A stretch of DNA of 32,000 nucleotides from Trichlorobacter lovleyi SZ. Its GTDB lineage: Bacteria; Desulfobacterota; Desulfuromonadia; Geobacterales; Pseudopelobacteraceae. This document shows, in pieces, positions 5,627-31,280 of the stretch. The stretch spans positions 1,500,001 through 1,532,000 of the forward strand of contig NC_010814.1 of NCBI RefSeq assembly GCF_000020385.1, in the 5' to 3' direction. Under the pieces are notes generated by a model. That model was not told where the DNA came from. It saw nothing but the letters and a program-made list of their open reading frames with translations, and made no database searches. The position numbers and the translations under genes were made by a program. Every line of letters starts with the position of its first letter. Positions within the stretch are counted from its first letter, which is position 1.

Positions 5627-6622
5627 ATGAAAAAACTACAGCGGATGGCGTTCGTTCTGGTACTTGCCGGACTGCTTGCTGTTCCGGCTGTTGCTCATGC
5701 CGTCAATGCCACCTACCGGTATGACCGCCTGAACCGCCTGACCAGTGTGACCTACGACAACGGCATGTCGATCGCCTACAGCTATGACAAAACCGGTAAC
5801 CTGATCAGGATTGCCCGGGGGATAAACGGTGCAGATGTTATTCCTCCCACGGTTACAGCCTTTAGCCTGCCTGCTGAAAGCAACAGTCTTGTCGTCCCCG
5901 TCAGCGTCTTCAGCGCAACCGATAACGTGGCCGTAACCGGGTACTGTGTTATGTCGACTGATAGCGCTGCCGGATGTTCCTGGAGCGCCAGTCCTCCGAC
6001 GAGCTATACCTTTGCCTCTGGAACGGCAAACGGCAGCCATACCCTCTATGCCTTTGCCAGGGATGCAGCAGGCAACAGCTCTACGGCAATAGCGGTAACA
6101 ACACAATTAGCAGTGCTCCAGCAGCAGTTGTCAGTGACCATTCTGGGGTTGTACGGCGGAGGCGGTTCCGTTACCAGCAGCCCTGGCGGTATCGCCTGTA
6201 CCAGCGGTACCTGTACTGCAGAGTACGCCAACGGGACTTCCGTTACGTTGATACCTGCACCGGATACGAGTTCAGTCTTTACCGCCTGGTCAGGCAACTG
6301 TACCGGCAGCAGCAACTGTACGGTCAGCATGACTGCGGATCGCAGTGCAACTGCCAGCTTCAGCCTGATTCCGCGGGCCAGAGTAGCAGGGATACCCTAT
6401 GGCAGTCTTGCCAGTGCCTATGCAGCTGTTCTTGCCAGCGGAGTGCTGGAGGCCCAAGCGCTGACTTTTGTGGAAGATCTTGCCCTGAACCGTGGCATTG
6501 TGTTCACTCTTCGGGGCGGTTTTTCCACTGATTACCTCAGCCGTACGGGGTATACCACCCTGCAGGGCAGGCTGACGGTGGGGACGGGGGCTGTCACGAT
6601 TGACCGGCTGATTATCAAGTAG
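5627..6622 (+). CDS. Secreted protein: signal peptide, two orphan YD repeats, Ig-like domain, Cys-containing B-repeat-like domain, shared terminal module
   Basis: AAGGAG at 5615-5620 lies 6 nt before ATG 5627 (MKKLQRMAFVLVLAGLLAVPAVAHA). The track ORF starts at 5603, overlapping the rhs stop as ATGA. Contains YRYDRLNRLTSVTYDNGMSIAYSYDKTGNL, DNVAVTGY Ig-like region, and GGGSVTSSPGGIACTSGTCTAEY...FTAWSGNCTGSSNCTV. Ends TLRGGFSTDYL...LTVGTGAVTIDRLIIK. Confidence 0.85.
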   Translation: MKKLQRMAFVLVLAGLLAVPAVAHAVNATYRYDRLNRLTSVTYDNGMSIAYSYDKTGNLIRIARGINGADVIPPTVTAFSLPAESNSLVVPVSVFSATDNVAVTGYCVMSTDSAAGCSWSASPPTSYTFASGTANGSHTLYAFARDAAGNSSTAIAVTTQLAVLQQQLSVTILGLYGGGGSVTSSPGGIACTSGTCTAEYANGTSVTLIPAPDTSSVFTAWSGNCTGSSNCTVSMTADRSATASFSLIPRARVAGIPYGSLASAYAAVLASGVLEAQALTFVEDLALNRGIVFTLRGGFSTDYLSRTGYTTLQGRLTVGTGAVTIDRLIIK

Positions 6623-6693
6623 GGGGAATCAAGGTATTTCTGATCCATACCGACACTGATGCGCGCTGAACTTCCGCCACGGATCCATATAGT

Positions 6694-6795
6694 CCCCTCT
6701 CCCTGAGGGCCAGGGTGAGGGGAAAATGCTGGACAGTATATGCAGCGCTGCCCCCTCATCCGGCCTTCGGCCACCTTCTCCCCCAGGGAGAGGGT
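6694..6795. repeat. Nested imperfect inverted repeat (REP-like extragenic palindrome) in a convergent intergenic region
   Basis: ccctctccctg (6695-6705) is the exact reverse complement of cagggagaggg (6784-6794). Inside it, tgagggg (6716-6722) pairs with cccctca (6752-6758). No credible ORF. Confidence 0.5.
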
Positions 6796-6837
6796 ATAGC
6801 GGAAGATTAGCACTCATCAACATACTTATTAACGCAG

Positions 6838-6869
6838 AATCCCCCTTCCGGATAACCGGAAGGGGGATT
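6838..6869. terminator. Bidirectional stem-loop terminator between convergent genes
   Basis: Perfect 14-bp stem aatcccccttccgg / ccggaagggggatt with loop ataa. It sits between the stop at 6620-6622 (+) and the stop at 6896-6898 (-). U-tracts are weak on both strands. Confidence 0.6.
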
Positions 6870-6895
6870 GTTGTTACGGTACAAGCAGCAGCGTT

Positions 6896-9800
6896 CTACT
6901 TGACGACGATCTGATCCAGGATCAGGGTGCCGGCTTGAATGGTGAGCGGCGAAGTTATATCAGTATAGGTCGTACTTGGTGAGTTGCGTAACTCAAACGC
7001 ATTGTCGTACCCTCCGGCAATTTTCACGGTGATATTGGCTCGATTGTAGGAAAGGTTAGGAGCCTGAAGGCTGTCGTGGGCGCGAACCTCGTTGCCGTTT
7101 GCGGCATTCGTCAGCGCCTCAAGGAGGGTGTCATAGTAGGTCGTTAATGTAATGTTTTTGAGCTGTTTGAGCGAGAAGGTGGTGATAGCAGTCTTGTCGC
7201 TGCTCATCGTGAAGGTACATGGTTCAGCACTGCAGGCGCCACTCCACCCGCCAAAAGACGATTCCGGGAGGTGTGGAGTCGCCGTCAGGGTTACAGAGGT
7301 GCCGGAGTTGATCTGGGCTGTGCAGGTGCCCGGACAGTTAATGCCGCCTGTGTTCGAGGTGACGGTGCCTGTGCCATAGCCGGATAGGGTTACCGTAAGA
7401 GTATAGGGGGTAACCACCGTAAAGGAAGAACTGCTGGAAGCGCTACCGGTGGCTGTGGTAACACCGATAACGCCGGATAGTGCGCCAACAGGCACAGTGG
7501 CAGTTATTTGTGTCGGGCTGTTAACGGTGAATGAAATTGCCTGAACACCGCCAAACGTAACGTTAGTCACATTGATGAAACTTGTGCCGGTAATGGTGAT
7601 GCTGGCACCAACCGCACCACTGCCGGGAGTGAAACCTGAAACCGTTGGAGCCGCTACGACACCGCCGATCCCGCCGGAGGTAGAAGCCTCTGCAACTCCT
7701 GTTGAGCTGATGGAGCTAAAGGTATAGCCAGGTGCCGAGGCGTTGATGGTCAGCTTGTCGCCGTGGTTGACATTGGCGAACAGCACCACACCACCGCCGG
7801 CAGTTGAGGTGGAGGTGCCGGTATAATTGGTACCGTTATAATACTGCGCAACATAGGTGGTACCGCTGGAACCGACTGCCGTAACCGTGGCACCGTCAAT
7901 TGGCGTAGAGGTGCCCTGTACCAGGACGCGGGTGGAAACCGCCCCTTTGCCCGGGGTTGTCATGCCAGACAGGCTGTTCAGCTCGGCATAAGTTCTCATC
8001 TTGTAGGGAAATGATGCTGTTGTGCTGCTGCCGGCTGACATGCCCATTTTCTTGGTGTAATGGGGTTGTTTGCCGCTCGCCATGAACCGCAGGCTGAATG
8101 GCGTGGCAGTGCTGTTGGGCAGATTATTCAAAGTGAAGTTGCCGCTGCTATCAGTTGTGGTGGTGATGGACGGGTTACCTACCATGGTCACCGTGACGCC
8201 GCTGATGGGAGTACCGGCATTATCCACCACCTGACCGCTGTGGGTAGTGGGAGAGCCGAGACTTAAGGGCGCGCCATAATAACCGGCAGGACCCCAGGTA
8301 TAGGTTCCGGCTGTTGTTGTAACCACCAGCGGATTTGAAGGGCCGCCAAAACCGCCCGGCACGGTTGCAGTGATCTGCGTGCTGGTGGAGCTGGTGACAG
8401 AGAGCGGTGTACCACCGACTGTCACACTGGTCGGGCCGGCAAGATTGTAACCCTTAATGGTGAGAGTCCCTCCAGGCACCACAGAGGCCGGACTGATGCC
8501 GGTAATCAGAGGTGCTGATTGGGCGGTGACAAACCCTGCCTGGTACTGGATCTCGTTGTCGTTGGCATCCATTGCGGTCAGGGTCCAGCCGTAAGCACCG
8601 GTTGCCGTGGGAAGCGTGAATCCGTCATCGCTGGTATTATAGCTGGTGATCGTTGACGTCAGATTGTCCGTTGACCAGAGCTGATTGTAGTTGATGTCCT
8701 GCAGCCAGATCGCGTAGCTGTACCATTCTCCCGGTGGGGTGGCCGGCGGCAGCCAGCTGAAGACCGGGCTGCCATTGCTAGTCCCCTTGGTGAGGTCATT
8801 GTAGGGAACGGGAAAGATCGGTGCCAGCGGCCAGGGAGGGCTGTTATAAGGGGCCGTTGTTAAAACCGTGTAGGCATCGCTGCCGCCCTCAAGGTAGTAG
8901 ACGGTCACGGTGTAGCTGTCACCGGCTTGAGCCTTTTTCAGTCCCTGGATATTCAGTTCCAACCTGCCGTTTTCATATGAGTTGCCAAGGTCTACCGGAG
9001 TAACAACGTAGCCTGACCCGCTTGAAGGTGCGCTGGTGAGAGTGGCGTTGATCGGTGTCTTGAGTTGGGGAGTTACCAGCAGCCGGTACTGAAATTGTTC
9101 ACCGGAATTGTCTGCACCGGTCTCACCATACAGGGTGTGCGAGGTTCGTGCCTGCAGTACCGCGCCGGTTGTGGGCAGGTTGACCGCTATACCGCTTACG
9201 TTGGCATTGGTAATGGTGACCCGTACCCCGGCGCTTTCCTTGATCCGCAGGTCACCGGCATCATCGATGCCGTTGTTGTTCATATCAATAAAGCCCTGGA
9301 TGCCGTACTTGCCGGCAGGCAGGTTGGGGATGGTGAAGCTCTGACTGTTGGCTGCAGGGGTGGCATAGCCGACAAAATAGGGATAACCGTTTTCGTCCAG
9401 TGCAGCTAATCCCAGAGGTCCGGTAGGGGTGACGCCGGTGTAGGTGACGGTGCCTGAGATCGAGTAGCTTCCCTGTGGAAGCTGACCGGCCGGGCTCCAG
9501 GTGCTGGCAGCGGTGCTACCGGTGCTGCTTACCGCCACAACTTTGTAGTAGTAGGCGGTCGTTGCACCGGCGTGAATCCACATGCCGTTGCCATTGGCCG
9601 GAACATTAAGCTTTGAGCCGATAATTGATGCGTCACTACCCGCAGAGCTCCAGTAAATGTTGTATTTAACTGGTATTTCAAGTCCGCTGCTGTTTCTTGG
9701 AGGATCCCAATTAACAAGGTTTGCCGAATTGTTTTGCGATCTTGCAGCTCCCACGTTGGTAGGAGCGGCAAGTGTTGCCGGAGTGGGATCGGTGAGTGTG

Positions 9801-10183
9801 ATGTTGATGCCGGTGGTGTCGCCGGTCACATTGCTAAGATAGACAATCCCGGCTGGATCGCTGTCATGCTGAATGCCGGTGCCGGTGCTGTCAAGATACG
9901 CCTTGACCGGATAACCCCCGATTCCTGCACCTCTGATGGTAAAACTACCGCTATAGCTCCCTGAACTGCCGGTAAGTGTTGTGGAAACACCAACATTCCA
10001 GAGGTTGTAAATAACACTTGAACTACCGTTTGCCACCAGGTAGACCCTGCCGGTCTTGCTGCCGTTATAGGTGATTGTGCCGGATAGCGTTGCTGTCGGC
10101 GCTACCGATGCTTGGCAAATGCTACTGAACCCAAGCAGTATCATGGCCATAATGGGCAGTATGAGTTTTGTCAAGGTGCGCAT
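6896..10183 (-). CDS. Giant secreted adhesin-like protein (duplicated beta-sandwich N-domains, FN3, 2x IPT/TIG, carboxypeptidase-regulatory-like domain, B-repeat, shared terminal module)
   Basis: Likely start is ATG 10183 (MRTLTKLILPIMAMILLGFSSICQA, preceded by a G-rich aaagggggc). The track ORF extends to TTG 10261. IPT-like PLITGISPASVVPGGTLTIKGYNL and PTVSGFTPGSGAVGASITITGTSF, FN3-like VKYNIYWSS...YYYKVVAV. Ends ...IAGGYDNAFEL...PLTIQAGTLILDQIVVK. Confidence 0.85.
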   Translation of the reverse strand: MRTLTKLILPIMAMILLGFSSICQASVAPTATLSGTITYNGSKTGRVYLVANGSSSVIYNLWNVGVSTTLTGSSGSYSGSFTIRGAGIGGYPVKAYLDSTGTGIQHDSDPAGIVYLSNVTGDTTGINITLTDPTPATLAAPTNVGAARSQNNSANLVNWDPPRNSSGLEIPVKYNIYWSSAGSDASIIGSKLNVPANGNGMWIHAGATTAYYYKVVAVSSTGSTAASTWSPAGQLPQGSYSISGTVTYTGVTPTGPLGLAALDENGYPYFVGYATPAANSQSFTIPNLPAGKYGIQGFIDMNNNGIDDAGDLRIKESAGVRVTITNANVSGIAVNLPTTGAVLQARTSHTLYGETGADNSGEQFQYRLLVTPQLKTPINATLTSAPSSGSGYVVTPVDLGNSYENGRLELNIQGLKKAQAGDSYTVTVYYLEGGSDAYTVLTTAPYNSPPWPLAPIFPVPYNDLTKGTSNGSPVFSWLPPATPPGEWYSYAIWLQDINYNQLWSTDNLTSTITSYNTSDDGFTLPTATGAYGWTLTAMDANDNEIQYQAGFVTAQSAPLITGISPASVVPGGTLTIKGYNLAGPTSVTVGGTPLSVTSSTSTQITATVPGGFGGPSNPLVVTTTAGTYTWGPAGYYGAPLSLGSPTTHSGQVVDNAGTPISGVTVTMVGNPSITTTTDSSGNFTLNNLPNSTATPFSLRFMASGKQPHYTKKMGMSAGSSTTASFPYKMRTYAELNSLSGMTTPGKGAVSTRVLVQGTSTPIDGATVTAVGSSGTTYVAQYYNGTNYTGTSTSTAGGGVVLFANVNHGDKLTINASAPGYTFSSISSTGVAEASTSGGIGGVVAAPTVSGFTPGSGAVGASITITGTSFINVTNVTFGGVQAISFTVNSPTQITATVPVGALSGVIGVTTATGSASSSSSFTVVTPYTLTVTLSGYGTGTVTSNTGGINCPGTCTAQINSGTSVTLTATPHLPESSFGGWSGACSAEPCTFTMSSDKTAITTFSLKQLKNITLTTYYDTLLEALTNAANGNEVRAHDSLQAPNLSYNRANITVKIAGGYDNAFELRNSPSTTYTDITSPLTIQAGTLILDQIVVK

Positions 10184-10360
10184 GATCAGGCCCCCTTTCT
10201 TGCATGCATTTTTTTGTTGTATACAGTTAAAAAGCGTAGCTCTGCACTGCCTGCTTGTCAAGCAACCAATTGCGAATGTTTTAGGGGAGAATTAAGAGCC
10301 ATTTTGTGCTGTTAGGCTGAACCGTTGCCTGCTGGAAGGTCTGATGTCTGAAAGTGCTGC

Positions 10361-10404
10361 TTAAAAAGTAACGGCATTGACTGATTAGCCCAGTCAATGC
10401 CGTT
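10361..10404 (-). terminator. Rho-independent terminator downstream of the 10424-13420 gene
   Basis: On the - strand: aacggcattgactg / loop / cagtcaatgccgtt (14-bp stem, 10370-10404) followed by ACTTTTTAA. Begins 20 nt after the stop codon. Confidence 0.7.
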
Positions 10405-10423: not shown

Positions 10424-10987
10424 CTATTTTATGATCAGGTTTTCCACTGTCAGGCTACCGCTTGTGCCGCCAATGGTGAGGATGCCTGCGAGTGTGCTGT
10501 AAAGACCGGCATTGCTGCTGAATGCGGCATTATAGCCACCCTTGAGGGTTATCGGCTTGGTTACGGTCAGGTTTTCTGTAAACGGTTCTGCAGCCAGGGA
10601 GGTGGCATTATGGAGTTCGCGGGCCAGGATAGTGGCGTTGTCAGCGGCATTGCCATGGGCAAGGGTTAAGGTGTCATATCCGTTGCCACCGCTGATTTTG
10701 GTCTTATAGGCACCGGCAAAGGTGCCGGTTACGGTGGTATCGGAAGCGATGGTGAAGCTGCAGCCGTCGGTGCCGGAGCAACCTCCTCCGGTCCAGCCGT
10801 TGAAGGTTGAGTTTGCATCAGCCGCTGCAGCAAGGGTCACAGTGCTGCCATCGTCAAGGGAGACTGAGCAGGTTCCGGTCTTGCTACCGCCATTGACGGC
10901 GCTACAGGAGATGCCGGAGCCGTTGATGCTGCCTCCGCCCTTGATAGCTCCGGCAGCGGTGTAGGCGTGGTTAACGGTCAGAGTGTA
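10424..10987 (-). repeat. 3' cassette copy 1 (B-repeat plus terminal module), similar at nucleotide level to copies at 13446 and 18960
   Basis: Colinear protein and DNA similarity with the other two copies. In my hand alignment of the first 168 nt against the 13446 copy there were 29 mismatches (about 83% identity). Confidence 0.85.
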
Positions 10988-13445: not shown

Positions 13446-14006
13446 TTATTTGATTGTCAGGTTTTCCACGGTCAGTGCTCCGCTGGTGCCCCCGATGGTG
13501 AGGATGCCTGCGAGCGTGCTGTAAAGACCGGCATTACTACTGAATCCGGCGTTGTAGCCACCCTTTAAGATGACAGGTTTGGTTATGGTCAGGTTCTCTA
13601 CAAACGGTTCAACGGCCAGAGTGGTTGCATTATGGAGTTCGCGGGCCAAAATGGTAGCACCGGAACCGGCGTTGGCATGGGCAAGGGTTAAGGTGTCATA
13701 ACCGTTACCACCGCTGATTTTGGCCTTATAGGCACCGGCAAAGGTGCCGGTTACCGTGGTATCGGCGGTGATGCTGAAGCTGCAGCCGCCGGTGCTGCAG
13801 CCGCCACCTGACCAGCCGCTGAAGGTTGAGTTTGCATCAGCCGCAGCTGCCAGGGTGACGGTGCTGCCGTTGTCAAGAGTGACCGAGCAGGTGCCGGTTT
13901 TGGTACCGCCATTGACGGAGCTGCAGGAGATACCTGAACCGCTGATGCTGCCGCCGCCATTGACAACGCCGGCTGGGGTGGAGGCATGGTTGACAGTGAG
14001 GGTGCG
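13446..14006 (-). repeat. 3' cassette copy 2
   Basis: Same as copy 1. Encodes RTLTVNHASTPAG...GTFAGAYKAKISGGNGYDTLTLAH...LTVENLTIK. Confidence 0.85.
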
Positions 14007-15824: not shown

Positions 15825-15875
15825 GCCTGTCTCCTTGCTGTTCATGTAGATACCTTGAAATATTATTTCCTCAGA

Positions 15876-18698: not shown

Positions 18699-18834
18699 GG
18701 CAGCCTCCTTGAAGGGTAATTTAACACTTCTTAACAAAATACCACACTTCAGGCAACGGTCAAGCTATGCCGGTGGTTTCTAGACAGACATGGTGACATC
18801 TTGACCAAACGTGCCAACCTGTTTCATGGATGCA

Positions 18835-18959: not shown

Positions 18960-19523
18960 TTACCGTATGATCAGATTCTCCACCGTCAGACTGCCGCCAG
19001 CGTCCCCAATGGTGAGGATACCGCTGAGAGTACTGTAGAGACCGGCATTACTGCTGAACCCGGCGTTGTAGCCGCCTTTAAGGGTAACGGCTTTGGTTAC
19101 GGTCAGGTTTTCTGTAAATGGTTCCTCTGCCAGGGTCGTTGCATTGTGAAGTTGACGTGCCAGTATGGTCGCGCCGGAAGCAGCATTGGTGTGAGCAAGG
19201 GTTAAGGTGTCATAACCGTTGCCTCCGCTGATCCTGACCTTGTAAGCACCGGCAAAGCTGCCGGTTACCGTGGTGTCGGCGGTGATGCTGAAACTGCAAC
19301 CGCCTATGCCGGAGCAACCACCTCCGCTCCAACCGCTGAAGGTTGAGTTTGCATCAGCCGCCGCAGCCAGGGTAACGGTGCTGCCGCTGTTAAATGATGC
19401 CGAACAGGTGCCGGTCTTAGTGCCGCCATTGACGGAGCTGCAGGAGATACCTGAACCACTGATGCTGCCGCCGCCTTTGACAACCCCGGCAGCGGTGTAG
19501 GCGTGGTTGACGGTGAGGGTGGG
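18960..19523 (-). repeat. 3' cassette copy 3
   Basis: Same as copy 1. Encodes PTLTVNHAYTAAG...GSFAGAYKVRISGGNGYDTLTLAH...LTVENLIIR. Confidence 0.85.
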
Positions 19524-23081: not shown

Positions 23082-23543
23082 TTACCATTCCTTGTACGGA
23101 ACGCCGTTGCTCCCCACCAGGTCTGAGCCGCTTTGTACATCATAGACATTGCCCTTGGGCAGCGGGATGGCCCCCACCGGCTGGGGATTGGTGCCGCTGT
23201 TTTCCGGCGGTTTTTCCGCAGGAGGAGGGATAGTGATCCAGGTGTCATTCTTTCTGGTAAAGGGATCGGTAGGAATGCCGCGCAGGTACTTGCGTTCGCT
23301 AAGATCTTCAAGTTTGTCCGGGTATTTGCCCTGGTCAGCATAGTACTGGTCAATGGCCGAACGGATGCCATAGAGATTCTCCTGCAGGACCGCCTCGCGG
23401 GCCCGGATCAGGGCCCACTGGTAATTGGGCACGGCAATGGCCACCAGAATGCCGATGATGGTCATGACGATCATCAGCTCAATCAGGGTAAAGCCGTTCC
23501 TGCTCGTAATGGAATTACCAGTCTTTATAGCTGCTGCCGTCAA
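23082..23543 (-). CDS. gspG: GspG-type major pseudopilin (prepilin N-terminal methylation domain)
   Basis: G/FTLIELMIVMTIIGILVAIAVPNY with Glu at +5, YLRGIPTDPF motif, C-terminal ...GVPYKEW. Start is uncertain. I favour TTG 23543 (AAGGAG at 23555-23550, 6-nt spacer, 17-aa leader). In-frame ATGs at 23582 and 23606 would give 30- or 38-aa leaders. Confidence 0.85.
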   Translation of the reverse strand: MTAAAIKTGNSITSRNGFTLIELMIVMTIIGILVAIAVPNYQWALIRAREAVLQENLYGIRSAIDQYYADQGKYPDKLEDLSERKYLRGIPTDPFTRKNDTWITIPPPAEKPPENSGTNPQPVGAIPLPKGNVYDVQSGSDLVGSNGVPYKEW

Positions 23544-24003
23544 TGGCAACTCCTTCGCTGAGTGAATAGACGTCAAACACATCTTCCTTGCCCCAACTGG
23601 CTGCATCAGGTTGATCCGTATAGGAGCGCATGCCCCACTGCGGCGGCTGGCCCGGCTGGGGGGGATTCATCGGGTCAGGAGGAATGCGGCGCAGAAACTT
23701 GCGCTTGGCTCCGTACAGACCGCCGAAATCCTCTCCTTCAACCAGCAGTTCAAGGGTCTTGGGGTAGCCTGAGGCCTGCAGGGTTGCCACAATCTTTTTC
23801 TGTTCAACCGCCTTGTCATAGGCTTTTTTATAGTCATCAATCGCCGTGCGAATGGTGCGCAGGTTGCGGTGCAACTCAATCTCGCGGGTCCGTTTGGCGG
23901 TCATGCGGGTAAACGGCAGTACTGCTGATGCCAGCAGTGCCAGCAGGGTGACCGCTATTATCAGCTCAACCAGAGTTACCCCTTTGGTGCTGCGGCCAAT
24001 CAT
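23515..24003 (-). CDS. Second GspG-like pseudopilin
   Basis: MIGRSTKG/VTLVELIIAVTLLALLA (8-aa leader, Glu at +5), FLRRIPPDPM motif, C-terminal ...GSSYKDW. Its ATG overlaps the secretin stop as ATGA (24003-24000). Confidence 0.85.
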   Translation of the reverse strand: MIGRSTKGVTLVELIIAVTLLALLASAVLPFTRMTAKRTREIELHRNLRTIRTAIDDYKKAYDKAVEQKKIVATLQASGYPKTLELLVEGEDFGGLYGAKRKFLRRIPPDPMNPPQPGQPPQWGMRSYTDQPDAASWGKEDVFDVYSLSEGVAIDGSSYKDW

Positions 24004-26309
24004 GGACCAGCCGCCTCGTTGGCAGGTTCGGGCGGAGCCGTTGATGAACCCAGGTCCGGCTCCGGCGGTGGTGGTGCTTGCGCCGGGTCCGGCTCTGCAG
24101 CAACCGCCGCTGGAACCGGTTCAGGTTCTACGGTAACCGGTGGTGGTGGCGGCGCAGGCTGTGCCACCACCGGTGCAGCAACCGGAGTCGTCGTCGGCTG
24201 TTGACGGCCCGGCACCGGGGCCATTTTAAAGACACTGTTCGGCTTTCTGGCAGGCGGTGGCATAACCGGCCGGTTCTGTGTCGCTGGTGTTGCTGCCGCT
24301 GCCCCGGGCTGTTGCTGTGGTGCAGCTCCTGTCTTGGCCGGAACTGTTGGCAGAGGTGCCGGCCTGGTTGACGGTTGCGCCGGTATGCCCTGTGGCGGTT
24401 GTGGTTTGATTGCCGGAACTGCCTGGTGAACTGCCGCTGCCGGCACCGGCGCGGCGTATTCCGGCTCCTGTTCAAATGAGGCATAGGGTGGTGTCACCGA
24501 CGGGTCATCCTCTTTGCCGGAGATAAAGGAGGTTACCTTGCGGGGTTGCACGGTCACGCCTCTGACGAGCCTGGGTGTAATGGCCAGGATCAGCTCGGTC
24601 TTGTCGTTGTCGGTCTTGCTGTTTGACAAGAGCGGTCCGATAAGCGGGATGTCACCCAGCAGGAAGATCTTCTGTTTGCTGTCGCTGTTGCTGTGGGAGA
24701 TCAGGCCGCCGATCACGCTGGTCTCACCGTCTTTGAGGCTTAGGACCGTATCAAGGTTGCGGGTGCCGATGGTGACCACCGTGGTGGCACTGTCCTTGCC
24801 CCCCACGGTCTCGCGGGAGATGATCGAGCTGACCTCAAGTCCCAGCTTGATGGAGACCTCGTTGTTGAGCTGGATGGTGGGCTCGGCATTGACCTTGACC
24901 CCCACATCCACGTACTGCACGTTGACCTGCGAGGTGGTGCCGGTGGTGGCCATGGTGGTGGTGGTGATCGGTACCCTGGTGCCGACATTGAACTTGGCCT
25001 TTTCCTTGTTCTTGACCCTGATCTTGGGATTGGAGAGTACCTCGCCGTTGGTCAGGGTCTTGCCGAAGTTGTACTGGGCATTGGGCACGGTGACATAACC
25101 GCCGAAGCTGTTGATGCTGAAGGCCTTGACCAGGTTCTTGATGGTTGCATCGGTGGTGACCGTGGTGGATGTCGTGGAGGTGGTGTCCTTGAGCGTGGTT
25201 GCCAGCAGTTCGTTGCTGGGGGAGAACGCCCCCAGCTGCACATCGTAGTTGCTCAGCAGCAGACCGACGTTGTGGGCGTTCTTGTCACTGATCTCGATCA
25301 CCTCGACATCCAGCACCACCTCTGCCTCCGGCAGGTCATGGGCCTCCAGGATCTTTTCAATCACATCGGTGACATCACTGGTATCCCGTACCACCAGGGC
25401 ATTGGCATCCTCGTTGATATACAGCCGCCGCACCTGCAGCATGGTCCTGATCAGGTTGGCCGCCTTCTTGGCATCCAGGTGGTTCAGGTGGAAGGTGCGC
25501 AGCTGCATGTCCTGGTACTGCTTGGTCTTCTCCGCACTCTGCGGGTAGATCAATACCGTGGTCTCGTTCAGTATCTTGTGACCCAGTTTGTACATGCCGG
25601 TCAGGAGGTCGGTTGACTGGCGGAAGGTGGCGTTTTCCAGGGTAATGGTGACACTCTGGTCTTTGACATCCGGGTCAAAGATGAAGTTGATGCCGGACAG
25701 TTGCGAGATGACCGAGAAGATATCCTTCAGGCGTGTTTCACGGAAACGCAGGGTGATCGGCTGTTTTGACTTCAACTGCAGCTCAAAGCCGTCAAGCTTG
25801 GATTTGCGCAGCGCGGCAATGCGCTGGGCTGCGCTGCGGTACTCCGGGTTCTCCGCTGCCAGATCCAGGGCCCGTCCAAAGGCGGTGGCTGCGTCCCGCA
25901 GCTTGTTGCCTTTTTCCAGGGTCAGACCTTCCTGATAAGCGGCCGCGGCATCCCGCAACCGGATGGCGTTGTTTGCCTTCTGCACAAGCCGGGGCTGACT
26001 AGGGTCAAGACCGGCAGCGGTTTGATAGGCAGCCACGGCACCGGCATAGTTGCCTGTCTTCAGCAGGGTATCACCCTCCTGCTCGCGCCCCCTGGCCGCA
26101 GCCATGCGTGTATTCAGGAATTTTACCCGGTATTCAGACTCCTCCGGAGCAGCTTTGACCGCCTCGGCGTAGCGGTACATCGCCTCTTCCAGCTTGCCCT
26201 GTTCTTCCAGATCCCTGCCTTCGCTATAATTTTTGCGGGCGGCGGAACAACCGGAAATAAAAAGTGCTAAGGCTACCACTAAAATAGCTATGTAACGTGG
26301 TTTAGTCAT
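24000..26309 (-). CDS. Secretin (GspD/PilQ family) lipoprotein with N-terminal TPR region and Pro/Ala-rich C-terminal tail
   Basis: Likely start is ATG 26309 (MTKPRYIAILVVALALFISGC, lipobox LFISGC). The track ORF starts at TTG 26339. TPR-like helical repeats, N0/N1-like ITLRFRETRLKDIFSVISQLSGINFIFD, and secretin core VQYVDVGVKV...LSLKDGETSVIGGL...FLLGDIPLIGPLL. The ~153-aa low-complexity tail is encoded at 24003-24461. Confidence 0.92.
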   Translation of the reverse strand: MTKPRYIAILVVALALFISGCSAARKNYSEGRDLEEQGKLEEAMYRYAEAVKAAPEESEYRVKFLNTRMAAARGREQEGDTLLKTGNYAGAVAAYQTAAGLDPSQPRLVQKANNAIRLRDAAAAYQEGLTLEKGNKLRDAATAFGRALDLAAENPEYRSAAQRIAALRKSKLDGFELQLKSKQPITLRFRETRLKDIFSVISQLSGINFIFDPDVKDQSVTITLENATFRQSTDLLTGMYKLGHKILNETTVLIYPQSAEKTKQYQDMQLRTFHLNHLDAKKAANLIRTMLQVRRLYINEDANALVVRDTSDVTDVIEKILEAHDLPEAEVVLDVEVIEISDKNAHNVGLLLSNYDVQLGAFSPSNELLATTLKDTTSTTSTTVTTDATIKNLVKAFSINSFGGYVTVPNAQYNFGKTLTNGEVLSNPKIRVKNKEKAKFNVGTRVPITTTTMATTGTTSQVNVQYVDVGVKVNAEPTIQLNNEVSIKLGLEVSSIISRETVGGKDSATTVVTIGTRNLDTVLSLKDGETSVIGGLISHSNSDSKQKIFLLGDIPLIGPLLSNSKTDNDKTELILAITPRLVRGVTVQPRKVTSFISGKEDDPSVTPPYASFEQEPEYAAPVPAAAVHQAVPAIKPQPPQGIPAQPSTRPAPLPTVPAKTGAAPQQQPGAAAATPATQNRPVMPPPARKPNSVFKMAPVPGRQQPTTTPVAAPVVAQPAPPPPPVTVEPEPVPAAVAAEPDPAQAPPPPEPDLGSSTAPPEPANEAAGP

Positions 26310-26368
26310 ATCATCTCCACAGATAACAACTTCATACAACTACCAGATTTCACCATTCAAAATTGCCT

Positions 26369-26965
26369 TTACCGCATTCCCAACGCCATCTCATCCCCAT
26401 CATCCGCACGCAGCACCAGTCTGTCGTCAGTGATGGCGGTCACCTTGTAGCCGTTGATCAGGCTGTCCCCCACGCGAATCAGTTTGATCTGGCCCCCCTT
26501 GGTCAGAAATGCCACCTGTTTGCCCTGTTTTTTCAACAGTCCCAACGACTTGTACTGTGCCAGCTCTTTGCGGGCCAGCTCCTGAGGTGTTGGCGGTGGC
26601 GGCGGTGGGGGGGGCGGGGGTGGTTTGATCGCTGCCGCTTTTTTGGCGGTGATCTTGGCCTCGACAACCTGTAGCGGGATAAAGAGATCCCGTTTGATCC
26701 GTACCTCGGCCTGCTCCGGTTCGGGTACTGCCAACGGCTGGTAGGCCGCTGCCGCAGGAACGGTTGTTCTTGCCGGTGGTTGAGCCGGAGCGGATGGTTG
26801 AGCCGGAGCGGATGGTTGAGCCGGAGCGGGACGCCGGGCAGGCAAGGTGCTGCCAGCCGGCCGGGGGGCAGCAACCTGTTGCCGGGGAGTCCGCAGCCAG
26901 GCATAGGCTAGCGAGAGCATGAAGATGAACAGGAGTACGATCAGCAGCTGTTTCTGGCGGCTCAT
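26369..26965 (-). CDS. PilP-like (or GspC-like) inner-membrane protein that probably contacts the secretin; Pro-rich linker
   Basis: N-terminal TM LLIVLLFIFMLSLAYAW. PAQPSA tandem repeats and an 11-Pro run. C-terminal beta domain VAFLTKGGQIKLIRVGDSLINGYKVTAITDDRLVL. ATGA overlap with the upstream gene (26965-26962). Lies immediately upstream of the secretin. Confidence 0.7.
   Translation of the reverse strand: MSRQKQLLIVLLFIFMLSLAYAWLRTPRQQVAAPRPAGSTLPARRPAPAQPSAPAQPSAPAQPPARTTVPAAAAYQPLAVPEPEQAEVRIKRDLFIPLQVVEAKITAKKAAAIKPPPPPPPPPPPTPQELARKELAQYKSLGLLKKQGKQVAFLTKGGQIKLIRVGDSLINGYKVTAITDDRLVLRADDGDEMALGMR
26778..26829 (-). repeat. Perfect 18-bp in-frame tandem repeat (about 2.9 copies)
   Basis: ggttgagccggagcggat at 26778-26795 and 26796-26813, plus a 16-nt partial third copy. 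Encodes (PAQPSA)n in the PilP-like linker. Confidence 0.9.
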
Positions 26966-27522
26966 GGCTGCTTCTCCCGCAGGTAAATGGTGAGTTGCAG
27001 GTCAAGCACGACCTTTTCGAGGCCGGGATCCGGGCTGGAGAAGGAGACGCTGTCAAGGGTTGAGATACCGTCAAGACGTTCCAGATCGCCGATAAGGCGC
27101 TTCAATCCGGGGTAGCTGCCGTTGGCAGAACAGGTCATGCTATAGGCCAACAGGCCGTCAAGGTCAGTCTTGCGAATCTTGTAGCTCATCACACCGGGGG
27201 TGGCATTGCGCAGTGCCATGAAATCAAGGATTTCACTGATCACGCGGGGAAACTCATGGCGATAGGGGATGGTTGCGTAAAGTTCCCGGATCTGCTCCCT
27301 GTCACGCTGGTAGCTGTCGGCACGTTGGGCTTCGGCCCGGGGCGCTGTCAGGCGCCGTTTGCTGTTCCAGTCCGACTGTTGCTGTGCCAGCAGGGTCGTC
27401 TGGTGAAAGCCGGCGTACCAGAGCGATCCACACAGCAGCGTTGCCGCCAGCAGTGCCGTTAGCAGCAGGCGGTTTTCACGCAGGATCTGCAGCAGCAGGG
27501 CTTTTCTCATGGGGTATCCCAT
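26962..27522 (-). CDS. PilO/GspM-like assembly-platform protein
   Basis: Single N-terminal TM (LLLTALLAATLLCGSLWYAG), a coiled region, then an alpha/beta domain. Sits in the M-N-O-P-secretin gene order. An alternative ATG at 27510 forms an ATGA overlap with the upstream stop. Confidence 0.65.
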   Translation of the reverse strand: MGYPMRKALLLQILRENRLLLTALLAATLLCGSLWYAGFHQTTLLAQQQSDWNSKRRLTAPRAEAQRADSYQRDREQIRELYATIPYRHEFPRVISEILDFMALRNATPGVMSYKIRKTDLDGLLAYSMTCSANGSYPGLKRLIGDLERLDGISTLDSVSFSSPDPGLEKVVLDLQLTIYLREKQP

Positions 27523-28055
27523 CCCAGGCTGATCACAAACCTGATGCCGACCGGGGCTCCCGGCATGCCGTGCTGAGCATTGTCGTCGGTTGAAAGCAGG
27601 GTGGGGGTCTTGATTCCGCCGGTGTTGCCAAGCCGCTCCAGCAGATCGGAAAGCAGCGCCAGGCTGCGGACCCGTCCTTCGAGTTTGACCGTTTTTTCCT
27701 TGGTATCGGGGACTATGGCCGTGTAGGCAACGCCGTTGGGAGTGGCCTGTTCAAGTGCGTCCAGCAGCGCCCGCCGGGAACTGCGTCGTTGGGCCAGGAT
27801 ACTGTTCAGGGAGGCCACCTGGCGGCTGTGCAGGCTGAACTCTTTTTCAGCCACCCCGGAAGGTGGTGCGGCAAGCCGTTTGTCAAGCGCGCTGATCGCT
27901 GCTGCCAGTTTGTACGATTCGGCACGGTAGCCGATCAGTTGCCGGGCGCCAAGGATGCTGAGCAACAGCAGCAGGGCCAGCAGACAGAGCAGCCAGCCCC
28001 TGAGCAGGCGGCGGTTGTAGTAACGGCGGGTGGCTAGGTTGATGGCCGTTTGCAT
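27507..28055 (-). CDS. pilN: PilN-like assembly-platform protein
   Basis: INLATRRYYNRR followed by TM LLRGWLLCLLALLLLLSILGA and a coiled coil. Its start overlaps the pilM-like stop as TGATG (28057-28053). Confidence 0.75.
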   Translation of the reverse strand: MQTAINLATRRYYNRRLLRGWLLCLLALLLLLSILGARQLIGYRAESYKLAAAISALDKRLAAPPSGVAEKEFSLHSRQVASLNSILAQRRSSRRALLDALEQATPNGVAYTAIVPDTKEKTVKLEGRVRSLALLSDLLERLGNTGGIKTPTLLSTDDNAQHGMPGAPVGIRFVISLGWDTP

Positions 28056-28975
28056 CAGATCGCTCCCAGACCAGCGCCGACGGCGGCGCTGGTCTGAAAC
28101 AGCTGCAGTGGCGTAAGGCTGAGTTCAGGCCCCTGCTCAACCAGCGCTGCAAGGGCAACCATGCCGGGCGGGGTGCCGCGTGTTTCGGTCAGCAGTGCTG
28201 CAAGCGAAGCATCATGGGGGGCTGTCAGGGCATGACAACTGCCGGGCAGGATACCGCCGTAGCTGTGCCGGGCGGCAGACAGAGACGTTGCCAGTTCCCG
28301 GCGCAGCAGGGTGATCTGACCAGGTCCGGATGGCAGCGTTTTGACCCGGTAGAAAAGCGGCCTGGCATCAGATAGTGCAATGGTGCCGAGGACGTTGTCG
28401 TACAGGGTAATGATCTGCCCTGTATCCATGGGCAGACGGTCAAGCAGCCGCAAGAGGTGCAGTGTATGAAAACCGATCCGTGCCGGTTGCAATCCTGCCT
28501 CCTGAAACAGATCTTCATACTGTTGGATCACCGTGCGATGCACCAGGGCTACCAGCAGGTCAGTACTGCCGTCCGGCTTGCGTTCCAGCAGGTGAAAATC
28601 AAGCTGCAGCAGTTCAGGTTCCATGCCCAGCCGCTTGGCCAGTTTCCAGCGGAGCATGCCGGTTGCCTCGTCACGGGTTTTCCATGGCTCATCAAGGCGT
28701 GTCAACAGCAGGAGACCGGCATTGTCGGGCAGTGAAAGTGCTATCCGGCGGGTGGACAGATTAAGACTGCCCCAGGCCTCACGGAGTGAGTTGACAAAGG
28801 CAGCCGGTTGCAGCACCTGGGCTTCTTTCAAACTGGGTTGAAGGGTATTGGCGGGGAGTGCCGTGCGGGTTGCACGCTGCAGTACGATTCTGCCGGCCGG
28901 GCAGGAGAGCATGACGGCTGCTATACCGCCGTGACTGATCTCAATGCCGATTGCTTTTCGCTGCAACAGTCCCAT
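28055..28975 (-). CDS. pilM: PilM/GspL-like actin-fold cytoplasmic assembly protein
   Basis: N-terminal KAIGIEISHGGIAAVML (PilM-like first phosphate-binding strand). 306 aa, no TM. First gene of the M-N-O-P-secretin order. Confidence 0.75.
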   Translation of the reverse strand: MGLLQRKAIGIEISHGGIAAVMLSCPAGRIVLQRATRTALPANTLQPSLKEAQVLQPAAFVNSLREAWGSLNLSTRRIALSLPDNAGLLLLTRLDEPWKTRDEATGMLRWKLAKRLGMEPELLQLDFHLLERKPDGSTDLLVALVHRTVIQQYEDLFQEAGLQPARIGFHTLHLLRLLDRLPMDTGQIITLYDNVLGTIALSDARPLFYRVKTLPSGPGQITLLRRELATSLSAARHSYGGILPGSCHALTAPHDASLAALLTETRGTPPGMVALAALVEQGPELSLTPLQLFQTSAAVGAGLGAI

Positions 28976-29017
28976 AGTGCCCCAGATGACCTGTTTGGCC
29001 GGATTGTGTAAGACCTA

Positions 29018-29046
29018 TCAGTACCATTCAAGTCTGTCGGTGTCAA
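29018..29046 (-). promoter_or_regulatory. Candidate sigma70-type promoter for the pilM-like operon
   Basis: On the - strand: TTGACA (29046-29041), 17-nt spacer, TACTGA (29023-29018). It lies about 45 nt upstream of ATG 28975 and just downstream of the cytochrome terminator. The -10 element is weak. Confidence 0.25.
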
Positions 29047-29072
29047 TCCGGTGGCCGCGTATAAATCAGGTC

Positions 29073-29106
29073 TGAAAAAGAAAGCCCGCCGGTGAATCGG
29101 CGGGCT
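29073..29106 (-). terminator. Rho-independent terminator after the cytochrome gene
   Basis: On the - strand: agcccgccg / attcac / cggcgggct (9-bp GC-rich stem, 29083-29106) followed by TTCTTTTTC. Begins 27 nt after stop 29133. Confidence 0.85.
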
Positions 29107-29132
29107 GGTAAAAGGTGGTGCGTCTCAGTTGC

Positions 29133-31280
29133 CTATTTGGTGGTTTTCAGGCCGCGCTCGGCTGCCCGACTGAAGTTGTGGCAGAAGGAACAGTCATATC
29201 TTCTGTCGGCCACATGCTTGCTGTGTACCTTGGTGAAGCTCAGACTGTCTTCGCTGCCGTGGCACTGGACGCAGACCACGGATTCTGATGCCTTCAAAGC
29301 GTAGCCCATTGACTTCAGGTTCATCTGGGTTGCCGGTACGCTGGTGGTGCCGTGGCAGGCAGCGCACTTCAGGGCGTTGGCCTTGGGGGCCACGGTGTGG
29401 TTCAGCATCTGGTACTCGTCGGCCTTGACCATGCTGTAGGCATCGCCCGGGTTGAGACCCATGTTGGTCAGACCGGACTGAATTGAAGCAGCCACATCGG
29501 CGGTCTTGAAGTAGACCGAGGTGTTCAGGGCGATCAGCTTGCCGCTGGCGGTGTGCATCGGCTGGGTCGAGGTCTTGTACTTGAACGGATACAGCTTGGT
29601 GTTGGCGGTGTTGATGCCGCCGTTGGGACGGCTGATCTTGTAGTTGCCGGTGGCCGGATCGATCACGGCCACATCATACAGGTCATAGACCCAGGAACTG
29701 CCGTCATAGAAGGCGTAGACCGGTTTGAGGTTGTTGGCACGGACAACGGTCGGCTCCCAGCGGTTGTTGGCCACTGACCATTCGGGGGTTACCCAGGTGC
29801 GGTCGGTTTCAGTGGACTGATCACCAAAGCCGGTCACGGTGTCCAGTACGGCATCGGCCGCCTTTCTGCCGTAGGAGGGGATATGGCAGGTCTGGCAGGC
29901 CACACGCCCCACATGGTGGCTGATGTCATAGATGGTGGTGGAACTGAGGGTTGAGCTGCTATGGCCGGTGCTCAGGTTGGTTTTGGTGGTATGGCAGGCC
30001 GAGGTGGAGCAACTGATAAGCGTGGCATTGTCGGTTGGTCGCAGGTCTGAACCTCCGCCAGCCACATGGTGGTCAATGGTGGTATGGCACTGCTGGCAGG
30101 TCAGATTGGCGCCGGTGGAGGCCATATGGACATCGTAGTTGCGGTCGGTGGTGGTGCCGTTGATCAGGGCCAGATCCCCACGCTTGAGGGCATCGCCGCC
30201 GCCGCCCTTGGCATGGCACTGCAGACAGTTTGATTTAACCGGCTTGTGCAGGGTCTGCACGGCCTGATCCATGGAGATGGTCATCTTGGCGGTGTCCGGC
30301 TCAAACAGGCCGGTGGTGGCGTTACGTACCCGCTTGTAGGCAACCTGGTGGCAGATCAGGCAGTCGATGTTCTGGGTGGCATCGGCAATGGTGCCCGGCT
30401 TGGCACCGGCACCGATATGGCATGAACCGCAGCCGTTCCAGTTGCCCAGGGTGTTGATGCAGTAGGCGTTGACGGCGGTGTTCAGCTTGCCGCCGGTTAC
30501 CCCCGGTTTGTTGCTGATCTTGCTATACGGCCCTTCCCATTTGTAGTGGACTGAACCGGCCAGATCGGTGGCCTGTTTGGTGTGGCACTGCAGGCAGGTG
30601 GTGCTGCCGGTGTAGGTCAGATTGGCGTGGTTAGCTGCTGCATCTCCTGCCGGGTTGATGACAAAGGTGCTGGTCTTGGCTGCTTCACTGTTTCCGGCAC
30701 TGTCTATTGCAAAATAGGTAAGCGTCGTCGTGCTGCTGACCGGAATCAGGCCGGTGTAGGCCGCAGAGGCGGTGGTGGGGGTGCTGCCGTCGGTGGTGTA
30801 GTGGATAGTGGCAGCCTCATTAGTGCTCAGCTGGACATTGATCGCTGCCGTAAAGCTGCCGCCGGCGGGGTTGGGCGTTGTTACCGGCGGGGTTAGGTCA
30901 CCAGGAGGTGTCGTTGATCCGCCAATGGTAAGGTTGTCAAGGATCAGGGTGCCCTGGCTGATGGTCAGGCTGCTGCCCAATACGGTTGTGCCGGCCTGAG
31001 CGTTGAAGGCGTCATTGAAGCCGCCCTGTATCGTCAGGGTGACGCCGGGGCGGTTAAAGACAACCGGCGTGCTGTCCGGAAGAGGACTGGCGGTCAACAT
31101 GATGGTTGTCAGTGCGTCGGTCAGTGCAGTCGTGAAAAACTGGTTGTAGTAATAGGTTGCATTGTAAAAGGCGTTTGGCCCGGCAACTACCGCTGTGGAG
31201 ACAGTGGAAAAACAGGTCAGATACAGTGCAGTACCGGCCAGAAATGATAGTAGCCAACGATGCATGGTTGCTATACGCAT
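29133..31280 (-). CDS. Secreted multiheme c-type cytochrome (9 CXXCH plus 1 CX4CH) with a non-heme N-terminal region
   Basis: AAGGAG RBS before ATG 31280. Signal peptide ...CFSTVSTAVVA. Heme motifs: CLQCH, CGSCH, CLICH, CLQCH, CQQCH, CSTSACH, CQTCH, CAACH, CVQCH, CSFCH. The N-terminus carries the shared module (aa ~36-120, nt 30921-31175) and an IHYTTDGSTPT...AIDSAGN domain of the chitobiase/hexosaminidase C-terminal-like type. Confidence 0.92.
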   Translation of the reverse strand: MRIATMHRWLLSFLAGTALYLTCFSTVSTAVVAGPNAFYNATYYYNQFFTTALTDALTTIMLTASPLPDSTPVVFNRPGVTLTIQGGFNDAFNAQAGTTVLGSSLTISQGTLILDNLTIGGSTTPPGDLTPPVTTPNPAGGSFTAAINVQLSTNEAATIHYTTDGSTPTTASAAYTGLIPVSSTTTLTYFAIDSAGNSEAAKTSTFVINPAGDAAANHANLTYTGSTTCLQCHTKQATDLAGSVHYKWEGPYSKISNKPGVTGGKLNTAVNAYCINTLGNWNGCGSCHIGAGAKPGTIADATQNIDCLICHQVAYKRVRNATTGLFEPDTAKMTISMDQAVQTLHKPVKSNCLQCHAKGGGGDALKRGDLALINGTTTDRNYDVHMASTGANLTCQQCHTTIDHHVAGGGSDLRPTDNATLISCSTSACHTTKTNLSTGHSSSTLSSTTIYDISHHVGRVACQTCHIPSYGRKAADAVLDTVTGFGDQSTETDRTWVTPEWSVANNRWEPTVVRANNLKPVYAFYDGSSWVYDLYDVAVIDPATGNYKISRPNGGINTANTKLYPFKYKTSTQPMHTASGKLIALNTSVYFKTADVAASIQSGLTNMGLNPGDAYSMVKADEYQMLNHTVAPKANALKCAACHGTTSVPATQMNLKSMGYALKASESVVCVQCHGSEDSLSFTKVHSKHVADRRYDCSFCHNFSRAAERGLKTTK

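Follow-up and report, generated by a model that had tools for sequence, protein, structure and literature searches.

A small module derived from a beta-helix ends secreted proteins encoded beside a type II-like secretion apparatus in Trichlorobacter lovleyi

Seven secreted proteins (A to G) encoded within a 32,000-nucleotide stretch of the Trichlorobacter lovleyi SZ genome (NC_010814.1, positions 1,500,001 to 1,532,000; hereafter called the window) carry a common domain of about 85 residues, herein called the module. This is an autonomous, extracytoplasmic domain that derives from a beta-helix and serves as a C-terminal accessory module of secreted proteins. Six of its seven copies form the C-terminal end of their protein, whereas the copy in cytochrome G is N-terminal. 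The genes lie around an apparatus resembling a type II secretion system (T2SS), in a variant that includes a protein with an IPT domain. The reading we favor, tentatively and with confidence just short of even, is that the module might act as a shared handle, which either is recognized by this IPT-variant machine or retains its cargo at the cell surface after export. What is new is a large and widespread family of extracellular domains, with which thousands of metagenomic proteins end. The type of fold is known, and a sorting or docking role is plausible but unproven.

The module was detected with a profile hidden Markov model (HMM) constructed from 202 modules of other organisms and from no window sequences. 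When this model was applied to the 208 open reading frames (ORFs) of the window, exactly seven were matched, corresponding to genes A to G, a result that is far beyond chance. The whole-sequence expectation values (E), calculated at Z = 1.8e9, are 8e-20 for A, 2.8e-19 for E, 1.3e-12 for F, 8.7e-11 for C, 5.7e-10 for D, and 1.1e-7 for B, with the weakest being that for the cytochrome G (1.5e-5). The copies at the C-terminal ends of proteins A to F are encoded by nucleotides 6371 to 6619 (A, + strand), 6899 to 7165 (B, − strand), 10427 to 10711 (C, −), 13449 to 13733 (D, −), 15879 to 16133 (E, −), and 18963 to 19247 (F, −), and those of C, D, and F have a 9-residue insertion in common. In the cytochrome, the copy (30924 to 31178, −) spans approximately residues 41 to 119, such that the protein is arranged as signal peptide, module, TTPP linker, and CHB_HEX_C domain. 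The initial annotation of this DNA, which was made from the sequence alone, had described seven copies at coordinates that agree with the HMM-defined positions to within 3 nt. The six copies that it had placed at the C terminus do extend to the stop codon, and the seventh does follow the signal peptide of the cytochrome. Although these coordinates were right, copies 2 to 7 had been quoted as + strand positions while their genes reside on the − strand, and only gene A is on the + strand.

An AlphaFold2 (AF2) prediction of the module alone, which the initial annotation had suggested, was made for the copy from protein A by using a 16-sequence alignment. It yielded a model with a predicted local distance difference test score (pLDDT) of 96.4 and a predicted template modeling score (pTM) of 0.85. 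In this model, two short strands are followed by a helix (residues 14 to 20) and then by about nine short strands in about 2.5 layers (26 to 30/33 to 35/38 to 40, 45 to 52/63 to 66/69 to 71, and 75 to 79/81 to 83). An N-terminal cap helix followed by stacked three-strand rungs is the arrangement seen in right-handed parallel beta-helices. The consensus sequence of the module is PVRIAGTTPSYYSTLQAAYNAAADGDTIQAQALTFTENLTLNRNISVTLKGGYDSDYTSNSGYTTLKGSLTISSGSLTVENLVIEK, which can be summarized as Y-x-T-L-Q-x-A-Y-x-A-A-x-x-G-x-x-I...F-x-E-N-L...V-T-L-x-G-G-Y...G-Y-T-T-L-x-G-x-L-T-I-x-x-G-x-L-T-V-x-N-L-x-I-[KRQ]-COOH. The Y/F-x-T-L-x-x-A element that had been noticed upstream in all copies is real and corresponds to the cap helix, and the two or three beta-helix rungs that had been proposed from the letters alone are confirmed by the AF2 model and by alignment to the N-termini of true beta-helix proteins.

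In this alignment, a profile of 52 modules was compared by hhalign with the N-termini of beta-helix proteins from Chloroflexota, which gave a probability of 97.9% (E = 6.4e-13). The cap motif (Y-x-T-I/L-Q-x-A-I/Y-x-A-A-x-x-G-D-x-I ... F/Y-x-E-N-L ... L-x-G-G) is the same in both groups, and the last residue of the module aligns with column 104 of 174 in the template, which then goes on with GGG-type rungs. Indeed, the module profile also matches the N-termini of long GGG-rung proteins encoded on contigs of Anaerolineae and Thermoflexales (L010 to L012), and one of the long GGG-rung Chloroflexota proteins carries a match to the Chlam_PMP repeat. This homology to the N-termini of long beta-helix proteins is the decisive evidence that the module is the truncated start of a beta-helix. 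Taken with the predicted model, the profile comparison firmly supports a structure in which the cap helix of a right-handed parallel beta-helix is followed by its first ~2.5 rungs, and in which the protein ends with the last rung. Its descent places the module in the pectin-lyase-like beta-helix superfamily, although, with only ~2.5 rungs, it is not one of the usual beta-helix domains. Unlike such domains, it ends without a C-terminal cap, constitutes a separate domain, and usually provides the last residues of its protein, and it is matched by none of the Beta_helix, NosD, Pectate_lyase_3, and Chlam_PMP models. A beta-helix that is cut after its second rung and re-used as a stand-alone terminal domain is an unusual protein architecture.

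No match reached E ≤ 1e-3 in Foldseek comparisons with the PDB and BFVD, and the weak Foldseek and PDB-sequence matches include the beta-solenoids of pectin methylesterase, PL6 alginate lyase, and a phage tail fibre (the best, with a template modeling score of 0.63). A PDB sequence search with the 52-sequence profile gave no significant match, wherein the best relevant one was to the N-terminus of a pectinesterase (E = 2), and a match to quinolinate phosphoribosyltransferase (E = 0.028) was judged to be spurious. Stacking of tandem modules into one continuous helix was considered but is not supported, as the AF2 model of a natural tandem pair has a disordered linker between the two folded modules (pTM 0.48).

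The initial annotation had called for an HMM built from the copies to be compared with curated and general sequence collections. The proteins and the isolated modules were scanned against Pfam (2025 copy) and NCBIfam (June 2026), and a profile of the module was run against cluster representatives. The two curated libraries contain no match to the module, either when full proteins were scanned at E ≤ 0.01 or when isolated modules were scanned at E ≤ 10, in keeping with the claim that the domain had not been recognized; WI12, HCBP_related, and BasB are noise in these scans at E ≤ 10. When 1.84 billion cluster representatives (50%-identity clusters) were searched exhaustively with the profile, 5,917 clusters were recovered at E ≤ 1e-3 and 3,155 at E ≤ 1e-10. 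The module therefore defines a large, uncurated family, given that 5,917 clusters exist and yet neither Pfam nor NCBIfam has a model for it. No description of the module was found in the literature searched, and a plasmid collection yielded no match. The scan of a genome collection was biased toward close relatives, and that of metagenomes gave nine contigs, mostly short. A word-index homologue search with module alignments yielded 11 and 13 short fragments, which say little about architecture or taxonomy. A curated model of the module would improve the annotation of many environmental surface proteins.

The position of the module was assessed in a sample of 166 proteins, consisting of the best 150 of the 5,917 matches from the exhaustive search, fragments, and the seven window proteins. 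The module lies within five residues of the C-terminus in 153 of these proteins, and 48 carry two or three copies. Among 150 termini, the final residue is K, R, Q, or E in 134 cases (K in 52, R in 37, Q in 32, and E in 13), and it is preceded by three hydrophobic residues. The aromatic residue that is expected of the beta-signal of an outer membrane protein is found at the C-terminus in only three (Y in two and W in one). After an internal copy, the protein continues with a Pro/Thr linker and with a CHB_HEX_C, thrombospondin-type-3, InlB-B, or Ig-like domain. The fact that such copies precede linkers and other domains indicates that the module is a self-contained domain rather than a peptide signal, and the existence of internal, tandem, and N-terminal copies bears out the earlier preference for a folded domain over a strictly C-terminal signal.

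In 67 longer proteins of the family, the domains that accompany the module include the InlB-B repeat (27 proteins), PKD (13), HYDIN/VesB-like Ig (8), Lcl_C (6), and CarboxypepD_reg (5), as well as fn3, CHB_HEX_C, TSP3, M4 peptidase, BACON, RHS, and cohesin. As judged from these family matches, the partner domains are typical of extracellular proteins. The module is mainly added to the 3′ end of genes for multi-domain, Sec-exported hydrolases, for adhesin-like proteins, and, here, for a cytochrome, usually after InlB-B, PKD, or Ig-like spacers. Two occurrences differ in setting. A 90-aa ORF of a capsule-synthesis locus (L031, 9651 to 9920) consists of the module alone and is located just upstream of the gene for a module protein of 1,268 aa; this ORF represents either a module that stands alone or what remains of a pseudogene. 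A module-bearing fragment (P0162) carries the NCBI label of a metagenome-assembled genome (MAG) of Candidatus Hodarchaeales, an Asgard archaeon. The fragment may have entered this MAG as a binning contaminant, or it may be a genuine case from outside Bacteria, which bears on the question of secretin dependence.

All seven window proteins have Sec-type signal peptides, as determined by inspection, and they otherwise differ widely. Gene A (5603 to 6622, +; 339 aa) encodes, after its signal peptide, a YD/RHS repeat, an Ig-like domain, an InlB B-repeat, and the module. Gene B (6896 to 10261, −; up to 1121 aa, with a likely ATG at 10183) encodes TIG/IPT and CarboxypepD_reg domains, choice-of-anchor-Z repeats, and the module. 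Two M6-family metalloproteases are encoded by gene C (10424 to 13420, −; 998 aa; TIGR03296, 5.3e-49), which has InlB B-repeats before the module, and by gene F (18960 to 22025, −; 1021 aa; TIGR03296, 3.6e-50), which has a Cleaved_Adhesin-like domain and InlB B-repeats. Gene D (13446 to 15845, −; 799 aa) specifies a different metalloprotease (a weak NF038122 match) with a MAM-like domain, InlB B-repeats, and the module, and gene E (15876 to 18737, −; 953 aa) an Ig-like or adhesin-like protein with InlB B-repeats and the module. These Pfam and NCBIfam domains, like the partner domains found across the family, agree with the earlier statement that the module marks unrelated enzymes and adhesin-like proteins. 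Similarly, the Cys-containing B-repeat-like domain that had been described directly before the module proves to be the divergent InlB B-repeat of Pfam (PF18998). It is found by Pfam in A, C, D, E, and F; in B, a repeat of this type is seen by eye and is precomputed for a near-identical fragment (P0002).

Gene G (29133 to 31280, −; 715 aa), located directly upstream of pilM, encodes the multihaem c-type cytochrome with its N-terminal module and CHB_HEX_C domain. Its haem-binding motifs comprise nine CXXCH and one CX4CH, such that the label "decaheme" that it had been given is plausible, and its best family match, which falls below the cutoff, is to the octaheme tetrathionate-reductase type. The 3′ end of this gene is duplicated at 90% nucleotide identity (29133 to 29635 and 31498 to 32000, both −). 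A 141-aa ORF within the second segment (31498 to 31923) reproduces the final ~140 residues of cytochrome G and has three CXXCH motifs; it could be a fragment or the end of a second cytochrome gene that continues from there.

The cargo proteins are mosaics in which one C-terminal cassette is fused to differing N-terminal domains. Genes C, D, and F have 3′ cassettes of 570 to 1,340 nt in common (10425 to 11743, 13447 to 14777, and 18966 to 19539) that encode InlB-B repeats, the MAM-like domain, and the module, and that are 72 to 82% identical in nucleotide sequence. Because of this identity, duplication or recombination of the 3′ ends is indicated, and the pattern points to cassette shuffling among the cargo genes. 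Indeed, gene D carries the cassette type of C and F and yet has a different protease domain, whereas the N-terminal half of protein F matches one Trichlorobacter protein and its C-terminal cassette matches another protein, from Geobacter.

The apparatus that adjoins these genes is read, on the − strand, in the order G, PilM, PilN, PilO-like, PilP/GspC-like, secretin, two pseudopilins, IPT protein, F, E, D, C, and B, and no terminator-like site is present between the − strand genes from IPT to B. The assembly-platform genes for the PilM, PilN, PilO-like, and PilP/GspC-like proteins (26369 to 28975, −), all of which have orthologues in related loci, are followed by the gene for the secretin (24000 to 26339, −; TIGR02517, 3e-52), which has an N-terminal TPR region and a Pro/Ala-rich C-terminal tail and whose product is 100% identical to a T. 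lovleyi protein. Two GspG-like pseudopilins with an N_methyl motif (23082 to 23606 and 23515 to 24003, −; TIGR01710, 1.1e-13) come next. A conserved 299-aa IPT/TIG protein with a signal peptide (22073 to 22972, −) is encoded between the pseudopilins and the cargo genes. At the other end of the window, the 3′ part of a gene for a GspE/PilB-type secretion ATPase (18 to 1079, +; TIGR02533, 7.6e-130), whose 5′ end lies beyond the window, is convergent with the apparatus and cargo operon. The secretin and pseudopilin apparatus recognized by the initial annotation is thus borne out by family matches for the ATPase, the secretin, both pseudopilins, and the PilM/N/O/P-like proteins. Long Pro/Ala-rich stretches of low complexity, exemplified by a tandem PAQPSA repeat and a run of ~14 prolines, are present in the PilP/GspC-like protein (26369 to 26965, −) and in the secretin tail (24000 to 24540, −).

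These components include the core of a T2SS, namely a GspE-type ATPase, a GspD-type secretin, and GspG-type pseudopilins with the prepilin N-methylation motif. In place of the canonical GspC/L/M platform and the minor pseudopilins GspH to GspK, there is a PilM/N/O/P-like platform with a weak GspC_delta match (1.3e-4) and only two pseudopilins. On account of this platform and pseudopilin content, the apparatus resembles the atypical "Pul" type. In Geobacteraceae, the atypical Pul T2SS includes PulF/E, PilMNOP-like proteins, a secretin, and the pseudopilins PulG/OxpG/TklG, and it is needed for OmpB to be secreted (PMC3543383). The gene set is the same in the window, and the window secretin is 54 to 64% identical to those of ftsEX-linked systems from Geobacter, Oryzomonas, and others. 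The window variant differs from these in having an added IPT/TIG gene, an inserted cargo island, GspE/F on the opposite strand, and a secretin without a cohesin. Most orthologues of the window secretin bear a Pfam Cohesin domain at their extreme C-terminus (residues 661 to 770 in Trichlorobacter thiogenes; examples are P0198, P0204, P0191, and the secretins of loci L033, L034, and L038), whereas the window secretin has a Pro/Ala-rich tail of ~180 residues at this place. No description of a cohesin on the C-terminus of a secretin was found in the literature searched.

Comparison of related loci reveals that the module genes occupy a defined site in this apparatus. The order PilMNOP, secretin, two pseudopilins, IPT, and then three to five module genes is found in T. 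lovleyi, Trichlorobacter MAG11, T. thiogenes ATCC BAA-34, and Geobacter sp. UBA6802, and the latter three have three or four module-ending genes after IPT. In one locus (L005), a partial ORF that matches cytochrome G is present at the same place, upstream of pilM. Contigs with an identical IPT protein hold different cargo sets, one of which includes a Sortilin/Vps10-type cargo. In a metagenomic locus whose secretin is 70% identical (L037), the IPT gene directly abuts the convergent GspE-GspF genes, and neither cargo genes nor a module are present. Because this locus constitutes an empty site, the cargo genes are an island that was inserted between the IPT and ATPase genes. Thus, in T. lovleyi and its relatives, the module genes form a variable, mosaic island between IPT and the convergent GspE/GspF genes of an IPT-bearing, Pul-like variant of T2SS. 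Neither an IPT gene nor a module gene lies within 10 kb in three canonical, ftsEX-linked Pul-like loci with a cohesin-bearing secretin, which are those of Geobacter sp. SVR, Oryzomonas sagensis, and a Desulfobacteraceae MAG. Farther afield, in an unrelated deltaproteobacterial MAG, the gene for a protein with three modules is located 5 kb away from a classical T2SS F-G-H-I-J-K-L cluster.

Two further features of the empty-site locus (L037, 5177 to 17550) were observed. Upstream of its secretin, pseudopilin, and IPT genes, there is only a truncated PilP remnant and no PilMNO, and beside the secretin a 1,493-aa multicopper-oxidase/fn3/FG-GAP protein is encoded that lacks the module and is reminiscent of OmpB, which is known to be the Pul system's substrate in Geobacter.

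If the module were a shared handle, the cargo would be exported by Sec and folded in the periplasm, and the module would supply unrelated cargo proteins with a common feature at the level of the fold. A component of the T2SS-like machine could then engage the module, such that the cargo passes through the secretin, or the module could instead keep the exported cargo attached to the cell surface. It might be bound by the IPT protein, the pseudopilin tip, or the PilP/secretin N-domains, and the last beta-rung, which is free and uncapped and ends in a polar residue, would be the natural edge for such an interaction. We favor a handle because the island is located inside the apparatus locus, because the content of the island varies while the C-terminal cassette is constant, and because the module is a strictly terminal domain whose polar end is on an uncapped rung. 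A more demanding version holds that the module is a transferable, fold-level cargo tag that would be sufficient to route unrelated folded proteins, such as proteases, adhesins, and a multihaem cytochrome, through the secretin or onto the surface. Within the IPT-bearing Pul-like system, the IPT protein, the pseudopilus tip, or the N-domains of the secretin would then recognize it. We consider this version rather doubtful.

How a T2SS chooses its folded substrates is a long-standing open question. Here, all genes of a variable cargo island within a T2SS-like locus are marked by one small domain that folds confidently. If this domain did act as a transferable tag, T2SS-type systems would have their first export tag of a generic and modular kind, one comparable with the C-terminal domain of the type IX secretion system (T9SS). 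A modular tag can be directly tested because cultured strains exist (T. lovleyi and T. thiogenes ATCC BAA-34).

Several observations weigh against a handle. The supporting synteny comes from one bacterial family and one distant case, and the module is homologous to the ordinary N-termini of beta-helices in Chloroflexota. Copies within one locus are 22 to 47% identical to each other (the recent C/D/F triplet excepted), compared with a mean of 36% between genomes, and in pairs of orthologues the module is no better conserved than the rest of the protein. These two comparisons do not support modules that are homogenized within a genome or better conserved than the rest of the protein, as would be expected for co-evolution with one receptor. 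The most conserved positions of the module (the cap helix, the GG turn, and the core strands) appear to be structural, and AF2 shows no fixed packing between tandem modules. Moreover, known T2SS substrates use composite structural signals that are not transferable (PMC7949064). Finally, the module genes of several loci (L007/L008, two contigs of a Geobacter MAG, and L028, L031, L032, L035, and L036) have no T2SS-like or type IV pilus-like gene within 10 kb, although T2SS substrates often are unlinked anyway.

Copies in internal, tandem, or N-terminal positions are more usual for a binding module than for an export signal. The module might be a general extracellular binding or anchoring domain, akin to SLH, LysM, or carbohydrate-binding modules, for a surface or matrix polymer or another ligand. 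The clustering beside the apparatus would then reflect a mere island of secreted proteins. This explanation is a possible one, although we judge it unlikely on balance. It agrees with the great breadth of the family, with the multi-copy, tandem, and internal arrangements in 48 of the 166 sampled proteins, with the N-terminal copy in the cytochrome, with partner domains that are those of adhesins and surface proteins, and with the several loci that have no apparatus nearby. One of the latter, the L031 locus for capsule synthesis, sulfatases, and a polyketide synthase, carries four copies (three intact genes and the module-only ORF). Conversely, no ligand-binding motif or groove is evident in a stub of 2.5 rungs, the terminal bias (153 of 166) and the conserved polar terminus would be unexpected, and a general binding role does not predict an island that sits exactly inside the apparatus locus and for which an empty site exists.

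Alternatively, the module might be structurally inert, as a stable end-cap, a spacer, or a leftover of beta-helix shuffling that was spread by recombination of 3′ cassettes without having a specific partner. Its most conserved positions do appear to determine the fold, it is conserved no better than the remainder of orthologous proteins, and the nucleotide identity of 72 to 82% among the cassettes of C, D, and F, including their InlB-B repeats, points to duplication or recombination. We nonetheless regard an inert domain as improbable, because a remnant would not stay intact and confidently folding across thousands of clusters at 20 to 40% identity, nor would it be expected to keep a strictly terminal position and a conserved terminal motif.

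The weakest alternative, that the module is a true dockerin-type partner of a cohesin on the secretin or on other envelope proteins, is very improbable: most secretin orthologues do bear a Cohesin domain, including the T. thiogenes secretin that is encoded beside module cargo, and 3 of 67 module proteins contain cohesin domains, but the window secretin has none despite the seven modules around it, module genes are absent within 10 kb in the three canonical cohesin-secretin loci, and the module has neither a dockerin HMM match (PF00404) nor a duplicated Ca-binding loop-helix, its fold being a beta-helix rather than a helical pair of F-hands. Membership in a cohesin-dockerin system was rejected because the window secretin lacks a cohesin. 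The earlier description of the module as dockerin-like therefore survives as an analogy and fails as a membership, given the missing PF00404 match and the nearly all-beta predicted fold. The analogy is that dockerins also are small modules on the C-termini of diverse extracellular enzymes, and that some module proteins and related secretins bear cohesins.

By position and logic, the module appears most like the T9SS C-terminal domain or a dockerin, although it fails the fold and HMM tests that define both. The T9SS C-terminal domain (Por_Secre_tail, TIGR04183) likewise is a folded unit of ~80 to 100 residues that ends many unrelated Sec-exported hydrolases and adhesins and is divergent between cargoes, and homologous M6-like protease scaffolds are curated as T9SS-dependent cargo in Bacteroidota (NF052323, a partial match). 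In contrast, the module is a beta-helix stub rather than an Ig-like beta-sandwich and has no match of the TIGR04183/PF18962 type. In addition, its host belongs to Desulfuromonadota, the adjoining machine is T2SS-like, and internal, tandem, and N-terminal copies exist.

The GlyGly-CTERM/rhombosortase, MYXO-CTERM, and PEP-CTERM/exosortase systems also place a common C-terminal element on diverse secreted proteins that follow a T2SS-type route. The module differs in that it is globular, has no signature tripeptide, transmembrane segment, or basic tail, and ends with three hydrophobic residues and [KRQ]. Consistent with this, the sequence ends (...LTVENLIIK, with no hydrophobic stretch) and the NCBIfam scans give no indication of a PEP-CTERM, GlyGly-CTERM, MYXO-CTERM, or LPXTG element, and they agree with the initial annotation, which had reported no transmembrane helix, no PEP, LPXTG, or GlyGly motif, and no aromatic terminus. 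No sortase-like processing enzyme was found in the window, and no match to the PPC domain (PF04151) was found in proteins A to G or in isolated modules.

In the "choice-of-anchor" logic, one scaffold bears C-terminal tags that vary from lineage to lineage, and a likeness to it is seen here in the NF058597 match. Relatives of two cargo scaffolds are curated as cargo with C-terminal sorting, namely the T9SS-dependent M6-like protease and the choice-of-anchor Z repeats, and the sorting domain of these relatives presumably occupies the position that the module occupies here. As a separate observation, the NF058597 "choice-of-anchor Z" repeat is matched both by the IPT protein (5.8e-18) and by cargo protein B (4.5e-10), and so an apparatus protein and a cargo protein have a domain type in common.

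Gene A, the only module gene on the + strand, is preceded immediately by a gene for an RHS/YD-repeat toxin-like protein with a signal peptide (1212 to 5606, +; 1464 aa), whose stop codon region overlaps the start of gene A by 4 nt. An RHS/YD-repeat gene directly upstream of a module gene is found in three unrelated loci, which are the window, L029/L030 (669 to 9821), and L035 (2950 to 12152). In the two distant loci, the RHS gene encodes a Tc-toxin-like SpvB-TcdB-RHS fusion, and there follows a gene whose product (~165 aa) is matched by no Pfam model. The module proteins encoded downstream in the window and in L035 themselves begin with a YD repeat.

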